Shown in pieces: positions 24,790-33,006 of a stretch of 64,000 bases of DNA (positions are counted from its first letter, which is position 1; each line of letters begins with the position of its first letter). A model generated the notes under the pieces. The model was not told the DNA's origin, searched no databases, and saw nothing but the letters and a program-made list of their open reading frames with translations. The stretch spans positions 16,195 to 80,194 of the forward strand of contig JBCBTJ010000002.1 of assembly GCA_039818665.1 (NCBI GenBank), given 5' to 3'. The position numbers and the translations under genes were made by a program. Source of the stretch: Pseudomonadota bacterium (GTDB taxonomy: Bacteria > Pseudomonadota > Alphaproteobacteria > Caulobacterales > Hyphomonadaceae).

Positions 24790-27048
24790 ATGAGCGGCGA
24801 GCGTCGAACCGAGTTGATCGAACAGTTGGGCGCCGAAGCGGCGGAGGTCTTGGTCGAAGCCGCCGAGCAAAGGCGGATCACCTATCCCGCGCCGCTCGCC
24901 GAAATCACGGCGTTCGGCGAGGCGGTGGACGGCGGCGAGGCCAGGCCGGAAACGCTGGAGCGCCATGCGCGCGCCATGCGGCTGACATCGCTCGCTGCGC
25001 GCGGACGCCTCGCAATCGCGGAAATGCTCGAGGCCGCCGGCGACGCGCCGCGCAATGAAGATCTCGCCGATCTGCTGGGCGCGGGCCTGCCCGAAGAGAT
25101 TCTCGAAGACGGCTTGCGCCACGCTGGCGGCCTGCGCGGCGCGGCGGCGGACCTGCGCCGCGGCGCGGCCGAGGACCAGTCAGCCCGCCTTCTGCTCCGC
25201 GGCGCGCCCGATCAGGACGCCTCGCCTGCGCTTCAGGCGCTGCTCGACGAAGGCGGGACGGCGTGGTTCATCGACCTCGCCGGCGCGGACCCGGCCGCGC
25301 CTTCGGCGGCGATCAACATCGCCGCCTTCATGACGCCGGACGGGATCGACGCCGACGCGCTTGAGACGGTGCTGCGCGCCTGCGGTCCGGCCTTGGACAA
25401 GGGCGTCGTCTGCCTTGCGGGGCTCGCCGCCGCCGCGCTCGCGCTCGGCGAAGACTACGCCGACCCGAACGGCCCGGCGGCCGCCGCGGCGCTGTGCGCC
25501 CTGGTTCGGTCCATCGTGTCCGGATCCGCGCTCACGGCGGCGAACGCCAAGCGGCTGGGCGTCAAAGCGCGCCGGGCGGCGAACAGATCCAACATCGCGG
25601 TCGTCGCATTGCCGCTGTCTTCCGCGGCTGAGATCTGGCTCGAACCGGAAAGCCAGGGCGCCGACCCGGCGCATATCGGGCTCGCCGCACGGGACGACGG
25701 CGCGGATCTGCCGGACAGCGCGCGGCTGGGCCTGGCGCGCCGCGCGCCCGAGACGCTCGGGCCTTTGATGGCCTCGCTCGACCGCGCGATCGACCTTGAT
25801 GAAACGCCGGGCCTCGGCGTCGATCGGCTGCGCGCCCGCGGCCTGTCGAGCCAGGCCATCGACCGCGTGCGCAGCGCGCTCAGCGAGGGCCTGCCGCTCA
25901 ACGCCGCCTTCTCCCGCTGGGTGCTGGGCGACGAGATCATCGCCCGGGATTTGAACCTTGCGCCCGAAGCCTTCGACGCCGACGGCCGCGCTCTGCTCTC
26001 AGCCATCGGCTTTTCGCGGAAAGACATCGACGCCGCCGAAGCCGCCCTGGACGGCGCGCGCGAAGCGCTGGCGGCCCGGACGCTGGCGGAGGCCGGCTTC
26101 ACCGCGAGCCCGGATCTTCAAGCCCGCATCGCCTTCGCCGAGGCGATCGCGCCGCATCTGTCGGCGCCGCCCGTATTGACCGCCGAAACCGCCGGCGACG
26201 CGATCGAGATCGCTTCGAAAGGCCTTGGCGCCTGCGCCCAGGGCGGCCGCACGCCGGCCGACCAGAGCATTCTGGACCGCCTCGCCGACGCCCGCCGGCT
26301 GCTGGAGGAGCCGCCGACCGCGGCTGCGCCGGTCCAGCCGGCGCCGACGGTCGAGGACGGCGGCGACGCGCCGGAGCCCGCCTCGCGCGCCCGCCTGCCG
26401 GACCGCCGCAAGGGCTATATCCAGAAAGCCACCGTCGGCGGCCACAAAGTCTATCTGCACACCGGCGAGTTCGAAGACGGCTCGCTCGGCGAGATCTTCC
26501 TCGACATGCACAAGGAAGGCGCCGCCTTCCGGTCGCTGATGAACAATTTCGCCATCGCCATCTCCATCGGCCTGCAATACGGCGTCCCGCTGGACGAGTT
26601 CGTCGACGCCTTCGTCTTCACCCGCTTCGAACCCGCCGGCGATGTCACCGGCAACGACCGCATCACCCGGGCGACCTCCATCCTCGACTACATCTTCCGC
26701 GAGCTCGCCGTCTCCTATCTCGGCCGCGAGGACCTCGCCGAAGCCGGCCAGGACGTCACCCATGACGGCCTCGGCCGCGGCTTGCAGGACGGCTCCGGCT
26801 TCGACCGCGAGGCCGCCAAAGTCATCTCCCGCGGCTTCTCCCGCGGCCAGCTGCCCGACAATATCGTCATCCTCGACAAGCGCCGCGCCGAAGCCGAAGC
26901 CGTCGAAGACGCGGCCTCCGCCGCGGAGGCGGCCCCCGCCTATCTCGGCGAGCCCTGCCCCGAATGCGGCAGCTTCACCTTGTACGCGGTCGAGGAGGGC
27001 GGCGCGGCCGTCTGCGACGCCTGCGGGGCCGAATCCTCGGCCGTCTAA
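24790..27048 (+). CDS. class II (B12-dependent) ribonucleotide reductase NrdJ-like protein, N-terminally truncated with degenerate catalytic region and conserved C-terminal domain plus Cys4 zinc ribbon
   Basis: 752 aa, with GGAGG 9 nt upstream of the ATG. The C-terminal [79 protein letters not shown]...[17 protein letters not shown] is near-canonical for long NrdJ. It ends with CPECGS...CDACG. See findings for the degenerate middle region. Confidence 0.7.
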
Positions 27049-27160
27049 CCGCCTAAACAATTGGTAATATTGATGATCCCGGGCCACAGGTGCATGAAAA
27101 CGCCTGTCTCACTGTTTGTTTTGTTTCACAGCCCGAACGCAACCAGATAGAAGACCGCTC

Positions 27161-27871
27161 ATGGGATTACGCGCTCTGCTCGCCGCCGCCGTGGCTGGCT
27201 CGTTCGCCGGGTCCGCAGCCGCGGACGGCCCGAAAAAGGTGACCTGGCAGCCGGCTTATTCCGGCTCTTGCGAAAAGTGCCAGCTCGCCAACAAACACTT
27301 GTCCTATTGGGACCTCGCCGGCGCCAATTTCCCCGACGCGGACCTCTCGCACGCCACCCTGCTCGGCGTCACCGCCGCCGGCGCGGATTTCTCCAACGCC
27401 GTCGCGCCCAACGCCAACTTCACCCGCGCCAACCTCCAATCGGCCCGCTTCGAAGGCGCCGATCTCGGCCACGCCGTGCTGCACGGCGCTGATGCGGCCG
27501 GCGCGCACTTCGCAGGCGCGACCATGGACCGCGCCGATCTACGCCGCGCCATTCTGATCGGGGCGAATCTCGAAGGCGTCAGCGCGGTGTCGGTGAAAGC
27601 CGAGAGCGCCGACTTCTCCGGCGCGAATTGCACCGGCGCCATCTTCCGCGAAGCCAAGCTGCGCCGCGCCGTGTTCGACGGCGCCATCCTCACCAGCGCG
27701 ACCTTCGACGGGGCGGACATCGCCGGCGCCAGCTTCCGGTCGGCCCGGCTGATCGACGCCGACCTCTCCGGCGCGGCCGGCTATGAGAACGCCGATTTCT
27801 CCGACGCTTGCGGCTCCGAGACCACGCAAACCCCGCCCAGCCTCGACCTGCCCCTCTGCGCGACGAATTAG
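27161..27871 (+). CDS. secreted pentapeptide-repeat protein
   Basis: Internal ATG at 27161 (MGLRALLAAAVAGSFAGSAAADG signal peptide). Long run of A(D/N)LxG/A(D/N)FxG pentapeptide repeats (ADLSHATLLGVTAAGADFSNAVAPNANFTRANLQSARFEGADLGHA...). Confidence 0.75.
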   Translation: MGLRALLAAAVAGSFAGSAAADGPKKVTWQPAYSGSCEKCQLANKHLSYWDLAGANFPDADLSHATLLGVTAAGADFSNAVAPNANFTRANLQSARFEGADLGHAVLHGADAAGAHFAGATMDRADLRRAILIGANLEGVSAVSVKAESADFSGANCTGAIFREAKLRRAVFDGAILTSATFDGADIAGASFRSARLIDADLSGAAGYENADFSDACGSETTQTPPSLDLPLCATN

Positions 27872-27899: not shown

Positions 27900-28459
27900 T
27901 CCGGGCAGCCCGCCAAACAGCGCGAGACGCTCGTCCAGACCAACGCATAGGCCGCCGTCTCCTGATCGGCATGATCCAATTGCGCCGGCGACCGGGGTCG
28001 ATCAGCGAACCCGGCCGCGGACCGAGGATCAGCGCGTCGGTTGCGAGCGCGCCAAGCCGGGCGCCGGCATGCCCGCCGCACGGCCCGGGCGACAGCGTCA
28101 GGACCCGGCCTTTGCCTTGCGTTTGCGGCGGCCCGCGGACGCGTCAGCCTAGCGTCCACGCTCAATCAGAACAACCGAAACGCGCCGAAGGCGGCCACAT
28201 GGCGTTTGATGTCGGACGACTACTATGGGCGCATTTTGAGACATTAGAAGCTGATCATTCCAACGGCCGGAGTTGGCTCTTCTCAGTCCGAGACCACCGA
28301 ATGGGCGAGCGACTTAAGTCGCCCTAAAATGGACCCTCACCGCTTGGCGACCGATGCCCGAAGTGCTAATTTTTCGGCTGCTCGACGGAAGAGGAGTTCG
28401 AAGCCCATTGCGGACTTGCCGCTGCGTGCATCTCACATAGTGATAGTCGGTATCGTTTC

Positions 28460-28475
28460 GCAGAATAGATTCTGC
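28460..28475. promoter_or_regulatory. perfect inverted repeat GCAGAAT-AG-ATTCTGC upstream of islet ORF A
   Basis: Read directly from the sequence: 7-bp arms and a 2-nt spacer, ending 23 nt upstream of the GTG at 28499. Candidate operator or small hairpin. Confidence 0.3.
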
Positions 28476-28498
28476 ATATGGATTAGAACGCGTATGGG

Positions 28499-29503
28499 GT
28501 GAACACTCATCAGGAAGAACAAGTGAGTAAACTGCATAATGAGATGCTCAATTGGGCAACCCCGATCATAACCGGGGAAGATTGGCACTGGTTTGGTTGG
28601 CTGTTTGCGCAACGACCTACACGACCGTTTGTAACCCACTTAGTTGATGCTTGCGTCGAATGCGAATTGGGGCTCGAAGGGTTAGGATGGTCCCTGCTTA
28701 AAGACGTGGCCAGCATCTCGGGAAAAGAAAAGCACGAACCACATTACGAGATGCTGCTGCAGAAGCTCTCAGAAATCTTGATTCTCAATCAGCTCTTAAA
28801 GCTCCCCTGGCCTGAAGAGGCATCCTTCGAGCATGAGCCTTCGGCGGCACCAAATGGCAAAAGACCGGAATTGAAGGTTGAGACCCATCAACAAGTTTTC
28901 CTGTTTGAGGTGAAAGCGCCGGCGTTGTTATCGCATCAGCGCGCTAGAGCACTGAATCCGCTTCAGTATCCGGGGCGAATGTTTGATATGTCGATGCGCG
29001 CCATACTGTCGGGAGAGCAAGGCTCAACCTTACCCCGTGATAATCCGGTAAAGGACTTCCTGATCAGTGCGCAGAAAAAATTCTCAGAGTTCAATTTCGA
29101 GAAAGAGACATTCGGAATTCTCATCATAGTATGGGACGATTTTATATATGAACCTATAACCAGCTTGGTTCATGAAGAAAGCCAGGGGCTATTGACGGTG
29201 AATTCTTTTGCCCAAGACGAGGACGGAGCACCGTTAGAGTTCCCGAATATTAACTCGGTCATTGCAGTAAGGCATCTGCTCTATTTCCAAAAAGAAGTAG
29301 CGGAGACGTCACTCGAACGCAGCCACTGCTTCGATTTTGGAGGCGAGCATGACCTTCCGAATGTTGCGATATCAGTTCCTGGCACACTGGATGTTCCAGA
29401 GTTTGTGAAAGCGGGCCTTCGTGCTCTGGACTATGACGATGAGCGAATTAGCAGATCTGCAGACTACCGTCCCCAAGAATTGGTTATGTGGCTTAACATC
29501 TAA
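28499..29503 (+). CDS. islet ORF A: hypothetical protein with a PD-(D/E)xK nuclease-like motif arrangement
   Basis: 334 codons open in ~42% GC DNA, where stops should be frequent. GTG start at 28499, alternative ATG at 28544. Motif layout: helix HEPHYEMLLQKLSEILILNQL, then KRPE(124)LKVET, then VFLFE(137)VK(139)AP, then helix DNPVKDFLISAQKKF, then strand FGILIIVWDD. Confidence 0.6.
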   Translation: MNTHQEEQVSKLHNEMLNWATPIITGEDWHWFGWLFAQRPTRPFVTHLVDACVECELGLEGLGWSLLKDVASISGKEKHEPHYEMLLQKLSEILILNQLLKLPWPEEASFEHEPSAAPNGKRPELKVETHQQVFLFEVKAPALLSHQRARALNPLQYPGRMFDMSMRAILSGEQGSTLPRDNPVKDFLISAQKKFSEFNFEKETFGILIIVWDDFIYEPITSLVHEESQGLLTVNSFAQDEDGAPLEFPNINSVIAVRHLLYFQKEVAETSLERSHCFDFGGEHDLPNVAISVPGTLDVPEFVKAGLRALDYDDERISRSADYRPQELVMWLNI

Positions 29504-29615
29504 CCCAAGCCCGATTTGTCCGCGTTGATGGTATTCGCGAACGGCTTAAGCCCGCCCCATCTAAGACACTTGTGATTTCTGGAATGGGCGCAGAAGCAGT
29601 CGTTAGAAGTTACCT

Positions 29616-29915
29616 CTAAGATCTATACCAGTCCTGATCTGGTAGCTGACGTAACAATTGCCCTACGACTTCCAAGGCTCCGTTGTTATCGGCCCATACC
29701 AACAACTCAACGAGCCTATCGTTCTTCTCTCGATCAGTGCTTAGCGTCCATCCGCTGAGGACAAGCGGATGAGGGGGCGTCCACCGCCGATCGTGCTGGC
29801 GCAGTCTTTCCCAAAGAGTTTTCCACGGGATTGGCTTAGGACTCACCCGATCGTCGACGCAGCATTGGCGCAAGACTAACCGCGCTTCATCGCTAATGTT
29901 GTTGTTCTCAGGCAC
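29616..29915 (-). CDS. islet ORF B: small Trp-rich hypothetical protein, translationally coupled to ORF C
   Basis: 99 aa. GTG start at 29915 overlaps the last codons and stop of ORF C by 8 nt, with GAGG about 10 nt upstream. No internal Met and no TM segment. 6 Trp (IPWKTLWERL, RRWTPPHPLVLSGWTLS, LLVWADNNG, DQDWY). Confidence 0.45.
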   Translation of the reverse strand: MPENNNISDEARLVLRQCCVDDRVSPKPIPWKTLWERLRQHDRRWTPPHPLVLSGWTLSTDREKNDRLVELLVWADNNGALEVVGQLLRQLPDQDWYRS

Positions 29916-30591
29916 CTTCGTTTAACCTCATGACCCAATTTGAAATGGCGTCTACAAATAGTGGAATAATCGCCGCAGCAGCCGTCACACCGAATAGTAT
30001 TGCGAAGAACAAACCAACAATTTGCAGTGTCAAATTCAGTCGTCTGGTCCATTCCGGAATAACACGAGTGATCAATAATTTTCCGGGAAACACCAGTCCG
30101 TCGTTGGTGCGTACCTGTATGATCTGCGGCCCTTGATCCACGTAGTGCACATGGATTTGAAGAAGCTCCTGAGGCCCCAAATTTCCGAGCCTCAAAGTGC
30201 AGTGTCCTTCAGCTATGGTTTCCACGCCAAAGTTACGGTTCGGGACGACCCGCAGCTGCCAATCCATCGGACGAAAACTTAGCACAACTTCGCAGTCTTC
30301 CGCCGTTTCGCCGCCCAAATTCTGCAGAATTACGACCTCCGAATGCACCTGAGATGGTGGGTGGCCTTGCTCCTGGGTTGGGATCAAAAAGGATGCACGA
30401 GGTAAGACATTCCAGAATAAGTCTGGTTTTCTTCGGAGTTGATCCTTGACCCTCCACACAATCATTGCAGTGAGCACGGCTGAAATCGCACTAATGACTT
30501 GAGATGCAATCAAGCCCAACACTCCATCATGCGTGAAACCAACGACCCACGAGTCGTCTCGCACCCTAATTCTCGGAAAAGGGATACGCAA
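29908..30591 (-). CDS. islet ORF C: hypothetical two-TM membrane protein with a central beta-rich domain
   Basis: 227 codons open in low-GC DNA. TM1 is GVLGLIASQVISAISAVLTAMIVW and TM2 is LTLQIVGLFFAILFGVTAAAAIIPLF, flanking a ~135-aa soluble segment. The start is non-ATG: TTG 30591, GTG 30564 or GTG 30522. Confidence 0.6.
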   Translation of the reverse strand: MRIPFPRIRVRDDSWVVGFTHDGVLGLIASQVISAISAVLTAMIVWRVKDQLRRKPDLFWNVLPRASFLIPTQEQGHPPSQVHSEVVILQNLGGETAEDCEVVLSFRPMDWQLRVVPNRNFGVETIAEGHCTLRLGNLGPQELLQIHVHYVDQGPQIIQVRTNDGLVFPGKLLITRVIPEWTRRLNLTLQIVGLFFAILFGVTAAAAIIPLFVDAISNWVMRLNEGA

Positions 30592-31076
30592 CGATCATGG
30601 CGGCGGCCTTGTCTGCTCCCGTCGCTAGCCGGCGACAAGAAGTCATCCAGCTTCGTCGATATTTGGTAGCTGTATTTCATGATGTGCTAGACATATGAGC
30701 GCTTGGCGGGAGGGTCTGCGCGGCCAATGACTGCAATTGGGATCAACCCGCCATTCACACGATCATGTCCAAGCGGTGCAAACGGCCAAATTCTGTCGTT
30801 TTGATTGAGTATGAACCTATGGGAGGTCCGTCGCTGGATGACGCAGAACCGTGCGTCTCGGCGGACCCCGCTAAGGTACGCCGTCGACCGCCAGGCGCGC
30901 CAAGCCCGGCGCGCTCGGACCGCCCATATGCACTCTTCCAGCGCGGACCGGGACTCTTCGGCCAATATCCATAGGCCCTCGCCAGGCGCATCGACACTGT
31001 CGATGGGGCCCGATTCCAGGCGCCGATCATCGTGGATAGATTGCGCGGCGGCGGCGCGGGCGCCGGGCCTGGGGTT

Positions 31077-32909
31077 TTAAGATTTCGCCTGTGGGGCGAG
31101 CCGGATGTTGAGCTCGCGCAGCTGCGCGTCGCTCACCGGCGAGGGCGCGCCCATCATCAGATCGCGCGCCTGCTGGTTCATCGGGAACAGCGTCACGTCC
31201 CTCAAATTCTCGACATCCGCCAGCAACATGACGATCCGGTCGACGCCGGGCGCGATGCCGCCATGGGGCGGGGCGCCATAGCGGAAGGCGTTCAGCATGC
31301 CGCCGAACTCGGCCTCGACCACGTCGGGCCCGTAGCCGGCGACCTCGAAGGCTTTCAGCATGATGTCCGGCCGGTGGTTCCGGATCGCGCCGGAGGACAG
31401 CTCGATCCCATTACAGACAATGTCGTATTGGTAGGCTTTGAGATCGAGGATCTCGTCGTCCGTCTTGGCGCCCTCCAGCGCGGCCAGCCCGCCTTGGGGC
31501 ATGGAGAAGGGGTTGTGCGAGAAGTCGATCTTCTTCGCGTCCTCGTCATACTCGTACATCGGAAAATCGACGACCCAGCAGAAGCGGAAGACGTCTTTTT
31601 CAACGAGATCAAGGTCTTCGCCGATTTTGAGACGCGCCGCGCCGGCGAGCTTGTAGGCGTCGGCGGGCTTGCCGGCTGAGAAGAACACCCCGTCGCCGTC
31701 GCCGAGCCCGGTCTCTTTGAGGAAGGCCGCGAGATGATCGGGGTCGAAGTTTTTGAGCGCGGGGTCTTGGCTCGCGACCGCGCCGCCCTCGCCGGTTTTG
31801 AGGCGCGCATAGCCGAGGCCCGGCGCCTGCATCTCTTTCTTCGCCCAGCCGTCGAGATCGTCGAAGAATTTGCGCGATTGGGCCGCGGTCGCCTGGGGGG
31901 CCGGGATGGCGACCACTTCGCCGCCGCCTTTGATGATTTTCGCGAAGATGCCGAAGCCGGTCTTGCCCTCGTCGACGAAGAAGTCGGTGACGTCCTGCAG
32001 CTCGATCGGGTTGCGCAGGTCCGGCTTGTCCGAGCCGTATTTCGCCATCGCCTCGGCGTAGGGAATGCGCGGGAACGGGCCGCCGGGAACGGTCCGGCCC
32101 TTGCCCCGCCAGTCGGCGAACTCCTCGAACACCCCGCGCATCACCGGCTCGATCGCCTGGAACACGTCCTCCTGGGTGACGAAGCTCATCTCCACATCGA
32201 GCTGGTAAAACTCGCCTGGCGAGCGATCGGCGCGCGCGTCTTCATCGCGGAAACACGCGGCGATCTGGAAGTACCGGTCAAACCCCGAGACCATCAGCAA
32301 CTGCTTAAACTGCTGCGGCGCCTGCGGCAGCGCATAGAACTCGCCGGGGTGCAGGCGGGAGGGCACGAGAAAGTCGCGCGCGCCTTCCGGACTGGAGGCC
32401 GTGAGGATCGGCGTTTGATATTCGGTGAAGCCCTGCTCGACCATGCGCCGGCGGATTGCGGCGATGACCTCTGAGCGCAGGATCATATTGGCGTGCAGCG
32501 TCTCGCGGCGGAGGTCGAGATAGCGGTGAGTCAGTCGGATATCTTCGGGATAGTCCGGTTCGCCAAACACCGGCAGCGGCAGCTCGGCGGCTTCGGACTG
32601 CACCTCGATCTCGCCCGCGACCACTTCGATCTCGCCCGTGTTGAGATTGTCGTTCACAAGCTCTGCATCGCGCGCGACCACTTTGCCTTCGACGGTGAAT
32701 ACGCTTTCAGCCCGAAGCCGCTCCACGGTCTCAAAGCCCGCCGCGCCCGGATTGAAGACGATTTGCGTCAGCCCGAAATGGTCGCGCAGATCGATGAAGA
32801 TCACGCCGCCATGGTCGCGCCGGCGGTGTAGCCACCCGGACAATTTCACCGTCTCGCCGACATGGCGTTTGCGCAGTTCGCCGCAGGTGTGTGAGCGATA
32901 GGCGTGCAT
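31077..32909 (-). CDS. aspS: aspartate--tRNA ligase
   Basis: ATG at 32909 ([13 protein letters not shown]...), AAGGA upstream. Class II aaRS motifs: [17 protein letters not shown] and [14 protein letters not shown]. Confidence 0.95.
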
Positions 32910-33006
32910 GCGTGTCTGGTCCTTATTCAATCCCTTGGGGGCAAGCCGGGCGCAGACGCGCAGCGCCGCTAGCCTTTGTCAAGCCGATCGGCTACCGGTG
33001 CGCGCC

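Follow-up and report, generated by a model that had tools for sequence, protein, structure and literature searches.

The low-GC islet at positions 28154–30816 of the 64,000-nucleotide stretch analysed here (contig JBCBTJ010000002.1 of a Hyphomonadaceae bacterium; hereafter, the window) is probably composite acquired cargo rather than one system, and one of its genes, ORF A, is a candidate stand-alone defence nuclease. The islet, to which no strand is assigned, has a G+C content of ~0.50, compared with ~0.65 in its surroundings, and is located between the converging 3' ends of a pentapeptide-repeat protein gene and aspS. An earlier note on this DNA had read its three open reading frames (ORFs), designated A, B, and C, as a single acquired and possibly defence-like module. 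Our sequence comparisons indicate that A and C represent real but unmodelled families occurring independently of each other, whereas B is most likely not a gene.

The G+C content was 0.47–0.52 within approximately 28200–30750 and 0.63–0.76 outside when calculated in 400-bp windows. In 500-bp windows, the mean over the 64 kb was 0.652 (standard deviation 0.045), and all values below 0.56 fell in 28251–30750. A finer profile placed the transitions at approximately 28150 and 30810; thus, the sharp drop in base composition described in the earlier note was reproduced at all three resolutions. The third-codon-position G+C contents of A, B, and C were 0.52, 0.60, and 0.52, respectively, compared with 0.80–0.88 in the flanking genes. 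The ORF arrangement was also as previously described: A, on the plus strand, converges on C and B, which are both on the minus strand and overlap by 8 bp, and the first start codons of the maximal ORFs are GTG, GTG, and TTG for A, B, and C, respectively, with the likely starts of A and C now refined inward. None of the three ORFs matched any family in Pfam, NCBIfam, PADLOC, or PHROGs, in agreement with the earlier failure to recognise a named family. The other absences listed at that time likewise held in domain, tRNA, and repeat searches: integrase and transposase domains were not found in the islet, no methyltransferase was found among its ORFs, no direct repeats were found flanking it, and no tRNA was present anywhere in the 64-kb window. 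Lacking an integrase or transposase, a tRNA, and flanking direct repeats, the islet does not have the features that define an integrative element, a transposon, or an insertion sequence. No Rfam family matched inside the islet, and promoter- and terminator-like sites occurred there at or below chance frequency.

The locus was compared with those of related genomes chosen by an aspS-based scan of GTDB genomes, which assigned the window to Hyphomonadaceae and in which the best identity of aspartyl-tRNA synthetase (AspRS) was 86% (Henriciella and Hyphomonas metagenome-assembled genomes). Thirty Hyphomonadaceae-grade loci (L005–L034) were tabulated, among which 13 were complete and 24 contained sequence downstream of aspS. 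The complete loci had the gene order rnd, aspS, pentapeptide-repeat gene, and TSCPD-domain gene, and the gap between aspS and the pentapeptide-repeat gene was roughly 30–300 bp, compared with 3.2 kb in the window. Neither A, B, nor C was encoded in any of the 30 loci, so the trio is absent from the aspS locus of these relatives, as the earlier note had expected. The short gap and the absence of the three ORFs together point to acquisition, and the islet is an insertion specific to this lineage, placed in the spacer between two convergent genes. We consider it very likely that the islet was acquired and that it is not a conserved trio; the horizontal origin claimed earlier is upheld by the foreign G+C content together with the absence from syntenic Hyphomonadaceae loci. 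The site downstream of aspS was ruled out as a general insertion hotspot because none of the 24 relatives with sequence there presented a low-GC dip. A strain-level empty site was not found, as an exact look-up of the pentapeptide-repeat protein returned the same contig only. In the ten loci with the closest AspRS (L005–L014, 83–86% identity), rnd was located ~2 kb from aspS and no pentapeptide-repeat gene followed aspS; thus, their local synteny is unlike both that of the window and that of the other Hyphomonadaceae.

ORF A (28523–29503, plus strand) most likely starts at GTG 28523 and encodes 326 aa, while the maximal ORF starts at GTG 28499 and encodes 334 aa. The shorter form is favoured because an in-frame TAA lies right before the GTG matching 28523 in locus L001, where a good AGGA is located upstream, and because the gene callers also gave a length of 326 aa. 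The region upstream of A (28397–28522, plus strand) appears promoter-like, and approximately 100 nt of it (28397–28498) are conserved at the DNA level with relatives in unrelated genomes in a three-way alignment (85% identity to L001 from 28397, and partial conservation in L002). A perfect 7+7 palindrome (GCAGAAT-AG-ATTCTGC) is located in this region at approximately 28460–28475; it was rejected as a conserved operator for A since it was kept only in the closest relatives and lost in distant ones.

At least 403 relatives of A (E ≤ 1e-3, 42–87% identity) were found in Alpha- and Betaproteobacteria, all of them unnamed 'hypothetical proteins', with named sources including Variovorax, Pseudoduganella, Propionivibrio, Pulveribacter, and Bradyrhizobium. 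Canonical PD-(D/E)xK enzymes carry an acidic residue that starts core strand 2, (D/E)-x-K in strand 3, and often a Glu in the preceding helix. An alignment of 62 A sequences contained 37 invariant columns, and the AlphaFold (AF2) model built from it (pLDDT 93) placed the invariant residues E92 in helix 80–100, P123-E124 just before strand 125–128, and E137-V-K139 in strand 132–139, which correspond to the PD-(D/E)xK catalytic motif. A Peribacillus plasmid protein with 32% identity to A keeps Q88, E92, PE124, and E137-x-K139, as well as the WDD and EP residues. Foldseek searches against PDB and BFVD gave a best E of 0.02 with TM <0.25, although the order of secondary structure elements fits the PD-(D/E)xK core, and the interpretable weak matches were nearly all members of this superfamily, i.e., N.BspD6I, McrC, Cdn1, Hjc, R2 endonuclease, HincII, RecU, endonuclease I, and Mrr. 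From the canonical motif order, these matches, and the residues kept in the Peribacillus protein, A was accepted as a predicted nuclease-fold enzyme of a new family, and it is probably an active nuclease. Searching PDB sequences with A itself, and again with a profile of it, returned nothing, and no credible model match was obtained for the 62 relatives in Pfam, NCBIfam, PADLOC, or PHROGs; a weak match to TetR_C_15 in 10 of the 62 (best E 6e-4) was judged to be noise.

Among known enzymes, A resembles PD-(D/E)xK superfamily members such as Mrr, McrC-type, and NERD stand-alone proteins in its helix-Glu, P-E, and E-x-K residues, all invariant in the 62 sequences, but differs from them in that the similarity is confined to the core (TM <0.25) and that no counterpart was recognised for its N-terminal helical domain (residues 1–100) or for its invariant motifs RDNPxKDF and WDDxxYEP. 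Because it stands alone, with no methyltransferase gene, it is also reminiscent of modification-dependent (type IV) restriction enzymes; however, no known modified-DNA reader domain (SRA, YTH/EVE, or winged-helix Mrr-N type) was found by Pfam in the N- or C-terminal regions of A or its 62 relatives, although A might carry a novel one. Type II restriction-modification systems, in which the endonuclease gene adjoins that of its cognate methyltransferase, differ in that the islet contains no methyltransferase and that A has no conserved neighbour in 94 loci.

Those 94 loci, which included 80 metagenomic and 6 viral loci that were fetched, show A alone, with no neighbour in common. Of the closest relatives, the one in L001 (87% identity) is located inside a peptide ABC-transporter operon, while those in L002 (78%) and L003 (62%) follow a TetR-family gene and adjoin a resolvase, respectively. 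For more distant relatives, the neighbours are a Schlafen AlbA_2-like gene and an unknown of 1115 aa in L085, E2-like, Tle1-like, and cyclase genes in L087, and an integrase, a YobI ATPase, and insertion sequences in L088; the plasmid copy adjoins a recombinase and a SIR2 protein. The low-GC dip in L001 is exactly gene-sized (0.50 vs 0.68), and DNA identity between the window and L001 spans from ~100 bp upstream of the A start to the A stop codon. No C-family or B relative was found in any of the 94 loci with a C-family hidden Markov model (HMM) and with phmmer using B, and clustering of all neighbouring ORFs revealed no recurrent partner gene of A, the sole recurrent context being the prophage slot described below. 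As side observations, the A relative in L003 is followed directly by a gene (L003:9476–10531) for a 351-aa protein without a Pfam match that looks PD-(D/E)xK-like by eye (…QTDLSW…LLIESKV…), and a near-perfect 30-nt hairpin (93% complementary; L001:7130–7208) is located in ~1 kb of non-coding DNA that precedes the A cassette in the ABC-transporter operon.

In five contigs (L109, L174, L175, L176, and L178), the A gene belongs to a prophage whose genes run terminase, portal, protease/major head, decoration, phrog_6367, A, tail terminator, tail, and tape measure; here, A has a G+C content of 0.53, compared with 0.65–0.72 for the phage. The tail terminator has at least 589 close relatives in IMG/VR, and the slot was occupied in all 68 contigs containing both flanking genes, with inserts of 513–2760 bp, a mean G+C content of 0.56 (vs 0.66), and contents drawn from dozens of cargo families, most of them unrelated to one another. 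Among ten cargo proteins taken as representatives were DarT with a NADAR antitoxin, PDC-S31 (E 4e-82), a PD-T4-5/Abi_2-like protein, NERD, NYN, HEPN RiboL-PSP, and ParE. The slot corresponds to L178:5825–7007 and to the equivalent position in L181–L260, and the prophage family is uncultured and very common. P2/P4-like prophages are known for variable cargo slots (morons and defence hotspots) in otherwise conserved genomes. Likewise, the A relatives in these five contigs hold one fixed slot between structural genes, have a lower G+C content, and share the position with defence-type cargo, as prophage morons do, whereas the window copy is chromosomal, between aspS and the pentapeptide-repeat gene, with no phage genes nearby, and the slot carries non-defence cargo as well. 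In the single literature search made, neither a description of this slot before the tail terminator nor anything else specific was found.

ORF C (29908–30513, minus strand) encodes a predicted membrane protein consisting of a transmembrane helix, a beta-sandwich, and a second transmembrane helix. The start at TTG 30513, giving 201 aa, is favoured over the maximal ORF (to 30591, 227 aa) because relatives align from query residue ~28 to the end and because the NCBI and Logan calls are both 201 aa; in NCBI, it is annotated as 'hypothetical protein AAFX03_00930'. A word-indexed search recovered C itself only, and exhaustive phmmer against 1.84 billion representatives retrieved 163 distant relatives, mostly 180–205 aa in length, among which the closest named ones were from Hyphomonas and another Hyphomonadaceae genome. 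Pfam and PADLOC yielded no family match in 39 C-family members, and no relatives were found in plasmids or viral contigs. The model (pLDDT 93) comprises helix 21–52, beta-sandwich 58–167, and helix 180–226. The predicted sandwich matches CBM2 and chitin-binding modules (E 1e-4), a generic fold match, and C is thereby similar to hairpin or bitopic membrane proteins with an Ig/CBM-like sandwich; unlike CBM proteins, however, it has no sequence-family match, its sandwich is placed between two membrane helices, and the conserved QNxGR...E motif of its family is not a known sugar-binding signature. Positive charges are present on the sandwich side of both helices, which, by the positive-inside rule, suggests that the sandwich faces the cytoplasm. 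The four contexts of C relatives examined (L089–L092) were mutually different and all lacked A and B; in L089, the C relative is located in its own small GC dip. Candidate links between the families were also rejected: the 367–370-aa genes that converge on the C relatives of L090 and L091 are not a hidden partner, as they resemble neither one another nor A, and a weak C-like signal (bit score 29) in a 564-aa protein encoded downstream of the L002 relative of A was dropped because the C-family HMM did not confirm it. C is thus an unrelated small membrane protein of an uncharacterised family.

ORF B (29616–29915, minus strand; 99 aa, GTG) is a doubtful ORF. Searches of 5.8 billion proteins, plasmids, phages, and the 260 fetched loci retrieved no relative, and neither gene-calling pipeline called it. 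When the 412-bp segment was shuffled 5000 times, 1058 of the shuffles contained an open stretch of 99 codons or more, and the codon-position G+C pattern fits the opposite strand equally well. A match to DUF2795 (E 0.011), which scored 16 bits where the cutoff is 25, was judged to be noise. B is therefore most likely not a gene; of the three ORFs that the earlier note described as staying open in AT-richer DNA, B has a length that is within chance. The stop codons of A and C are separated by a 404-bp spacer (29504–29907), in which the unsupported ORF B is the only feature and no terminator-like hairpin was detected.

Outside the islet, the flanking host genes are a pentapeptide-repeat protein gene (27116–27871, plus strand) and aspS (31077–32930, minus strand), both supported by synteny, and the neighbourhood encodes, in all, a TSCPD-domain protein, the pentapeptide-repeat protein, AspRS, and RNase D. 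A weak Rfam match to asponA within aspS (31203–31451; 23 bits against a gathering score of 113) was judged to be noise. In the gene for the 752-aa TSCPD-domain protein, the N-terminal two-thirds (24800–26400) has an unusually high G+C content of 0.72–0.76 and is Ala/Arg-rich, and many long shadow ORFs occur on both strands of this G+C-rich part.

These results can be weighed against other explanations of the islet as a whole. In the earlier view, the three ORFs would make up a single defence or abortive-infection system, in which A is the nuclease effector, C the membrane component, and B the small partner. This view could draw on the tight packing of the ORFs, their similar G+C contents (0.49–0.54), and the 8-bp overlap of C and B, as well as on an inverted repeat that brackets exactly the three ORFs. 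However, none of the 94 A loci contained a B relative, a C-family relative, or a shared neighbour, none of the four C loci contained A or B, and B has no relatives and was not called by gene finders. Moreover, A is convergent with C, which means that the two are not co-transcribed. A three-component system is therefore highly improbable, and the earlier reading of the trio as one module is abandoned, lack of co-occurrence elsewhere being an outcome that the earlier note had itself named as speaking against it. The parts list proposed at that time survives in part, as A is of the PD-(D/E)xK type and C is a two-helix membrane protein, while the small third partner, B, falls away for want of relatives and gene calls and because its length is within chance.

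The bracketing repeat itself is imperfect, with arms at 28154–28179 and 30791–30816 (no strand assigned) that pair at 20 of 26 positions, lie on the left and right GC transitions, respectively, and constitute the longest inverted repeat of the region. It was equalled in 7 of 2000 shuffles of the 250-bp boundary windows, a test that was post hoc and uncorrected. In its size (2.66 kb), foreign composition, lack of a mobility gene, and terminal repeat, the islet resembles small islets and mobile insertion cassettes, and the repeat is compatible with A and C arriving together as one passive unit. The whole islet might accordingly be read as a non-autonomous mobile cassette with 26-bp terminal inverted repeats, mobilised by a transposase from elsewhere and delivering A and C together, a reading that does not exclude the others. 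Beyond the 7 in 2000 shuffles and the position of the arms on both transitions, however, the typical signs of such cassettes were missing: no target-site duplication was seen at the islet edges, no cognate transposase was found, no further copies of the repeat occurred in the window or in 179 loci, the A cassette of L001 has no analogous repeats around it, and pairing between the arms is poorer at their outer ends than further in. With a repeat this weak and a post hoc statistic, the mobile cassette is improbable. The abrupt composition jump and the origin of the sequence from a metagenome-assembled genome could also be explained by an assembly chimera, in which foreign reads were joined into that genome. 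This is extremely improbable, since Logan contig L004 (4840 bp, a separate assembly) matches 3.9 kb at 100% identity including both islet junctions, to aspS and to the pentapeptide-repeat gene, although L004 may share the same reads.

With composite cargo thus the preferred reading of the islet, the role of A remains to be weighed. A together with ~100 bp of its own upstream DNA would form a self-contained single-gene cassette, which is found alone, as a gene-sized low-GC dip, at unrelated chromosomal sites and also as a moron in the hypervariable prophage slot. Its product would be a stand-alone nucleic-acid-cutting conflict or defence protein, in which the N-terminal helical domain and the C-terminal region around the nuclease core could serve target sensing or self-restraint, with no methyltransferase, antitoxin, or other conserved partner beside it; C would be a separate gene, whose two membrane helices bracket the beta-sandwich. 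On the basis of the motif, the solo, patchy, and low-GC distribution, the absence of a partner, and the prophage slot, we tentatively propose that A acts in phage defence or genetic conflict. The defence-like idea of the earlier note is accordingly retained for A alone, through its association with the prophage cargo hotspot, and not for the trio. A selfish homing-type endonuclease, which cuts A-less alleles and is copied in during repair, would also account for solo insertion: the insertions are gene-sized, within an operon (L001) and between phage head and tail genes, and combine a nuclease motif with the lack of any gene partner. Comparable positions are taken in phages by free-standing homing endonucleases, and the PD-(D/E)xK fold is known from some homing endonucleases. 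Nevertheless, the insertion sites of A are mutually unrelated, the prophage slot does not alternate between A and an empty site but contains dozens of unrelated cargo families, so that cargo turnover there needs no activity of A, and a 330-aa protein so strongly conserved over its full length in different classes would be unusual for homing endonucleases, making this origin rather unlikely. A similarly low probability is assigned to A being not a conflict gene but a widely travelling gene for a dispensable enzyme of DNA repair or metabolism, or for a binding protein with an inactive nuclease fold. The absence of a defence-model match, the very high sequence conservation, the many housekeeping chromosomal contexts, and the non-defence cargo in the prophage slot fit this explanation, while the patchy and solo distribution of A, its foreign G+C content in every host examined, and its recurrence beside mobile and defence-type genes argue against it.

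Several observations also weigh against reading A as a defence nuclease within composite cargo. A, B, and C had zero matches at E ≤ 1 in PADLOC-DB v2.0.0 (2023), so that the comparison with defence models to which the earlier idea pointed gave it no support. The structural matches of A were all weak (see above), and its fold assignment thus rests mainly on the motif and the order of strands and helices. A was found in none of 50,697 GenBank phage records and is nearly absent from plasmids. The prophage slot also carries cargo that by eye resembles metal, sulfate, and chromate transporters, a kinase, and an acetyltransferase, so its association with defence is suggestive only. Regarding the composite nature of the islet, the independence of the C family was drawn from four contexts, and the boundary repeat hints at joint arrival, which weakens the case for two independent acquisitions but not the functional unlinking of A and C.

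The A family would thus be a new family within a known kind, namely, stand-alone PD-(D/E)xK genes carried as morons or islets, and nothing here is categorically new. A bolder proposal, which we regard as doubtful, is that A founds a new and widespread family of stand-alone anti-phage nucleases, with a PD-(D/E)xK core and sensing domains not seen before, spreading as a ~1.1-kb promoter-plus-gene cassette via chromosomes and a prophage hotspot, and that the boundary repeat might mark a new form of mobility that needs no resident recombinase. For annotation, the islet carries the caution that neighbouring orphan genes with a similar foreign composition need not be one system, and that a 99-codon ORF in DNA of 50% G+C requires no explanation. 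Both the A family and the prophage slot offer concrete leads that are cheap to test: the A cassette is only ~1.1 kb and hence easily tested, and the slot, filled in every one of the 68 contigs and with its dozens of cargo families, can be mined for further candidates. Should A prove to be a nuclease active in defence, it would represent a further compact system of a single gene, with hundreds of proteobacterial relatives and a new regulatory or sensing domain.

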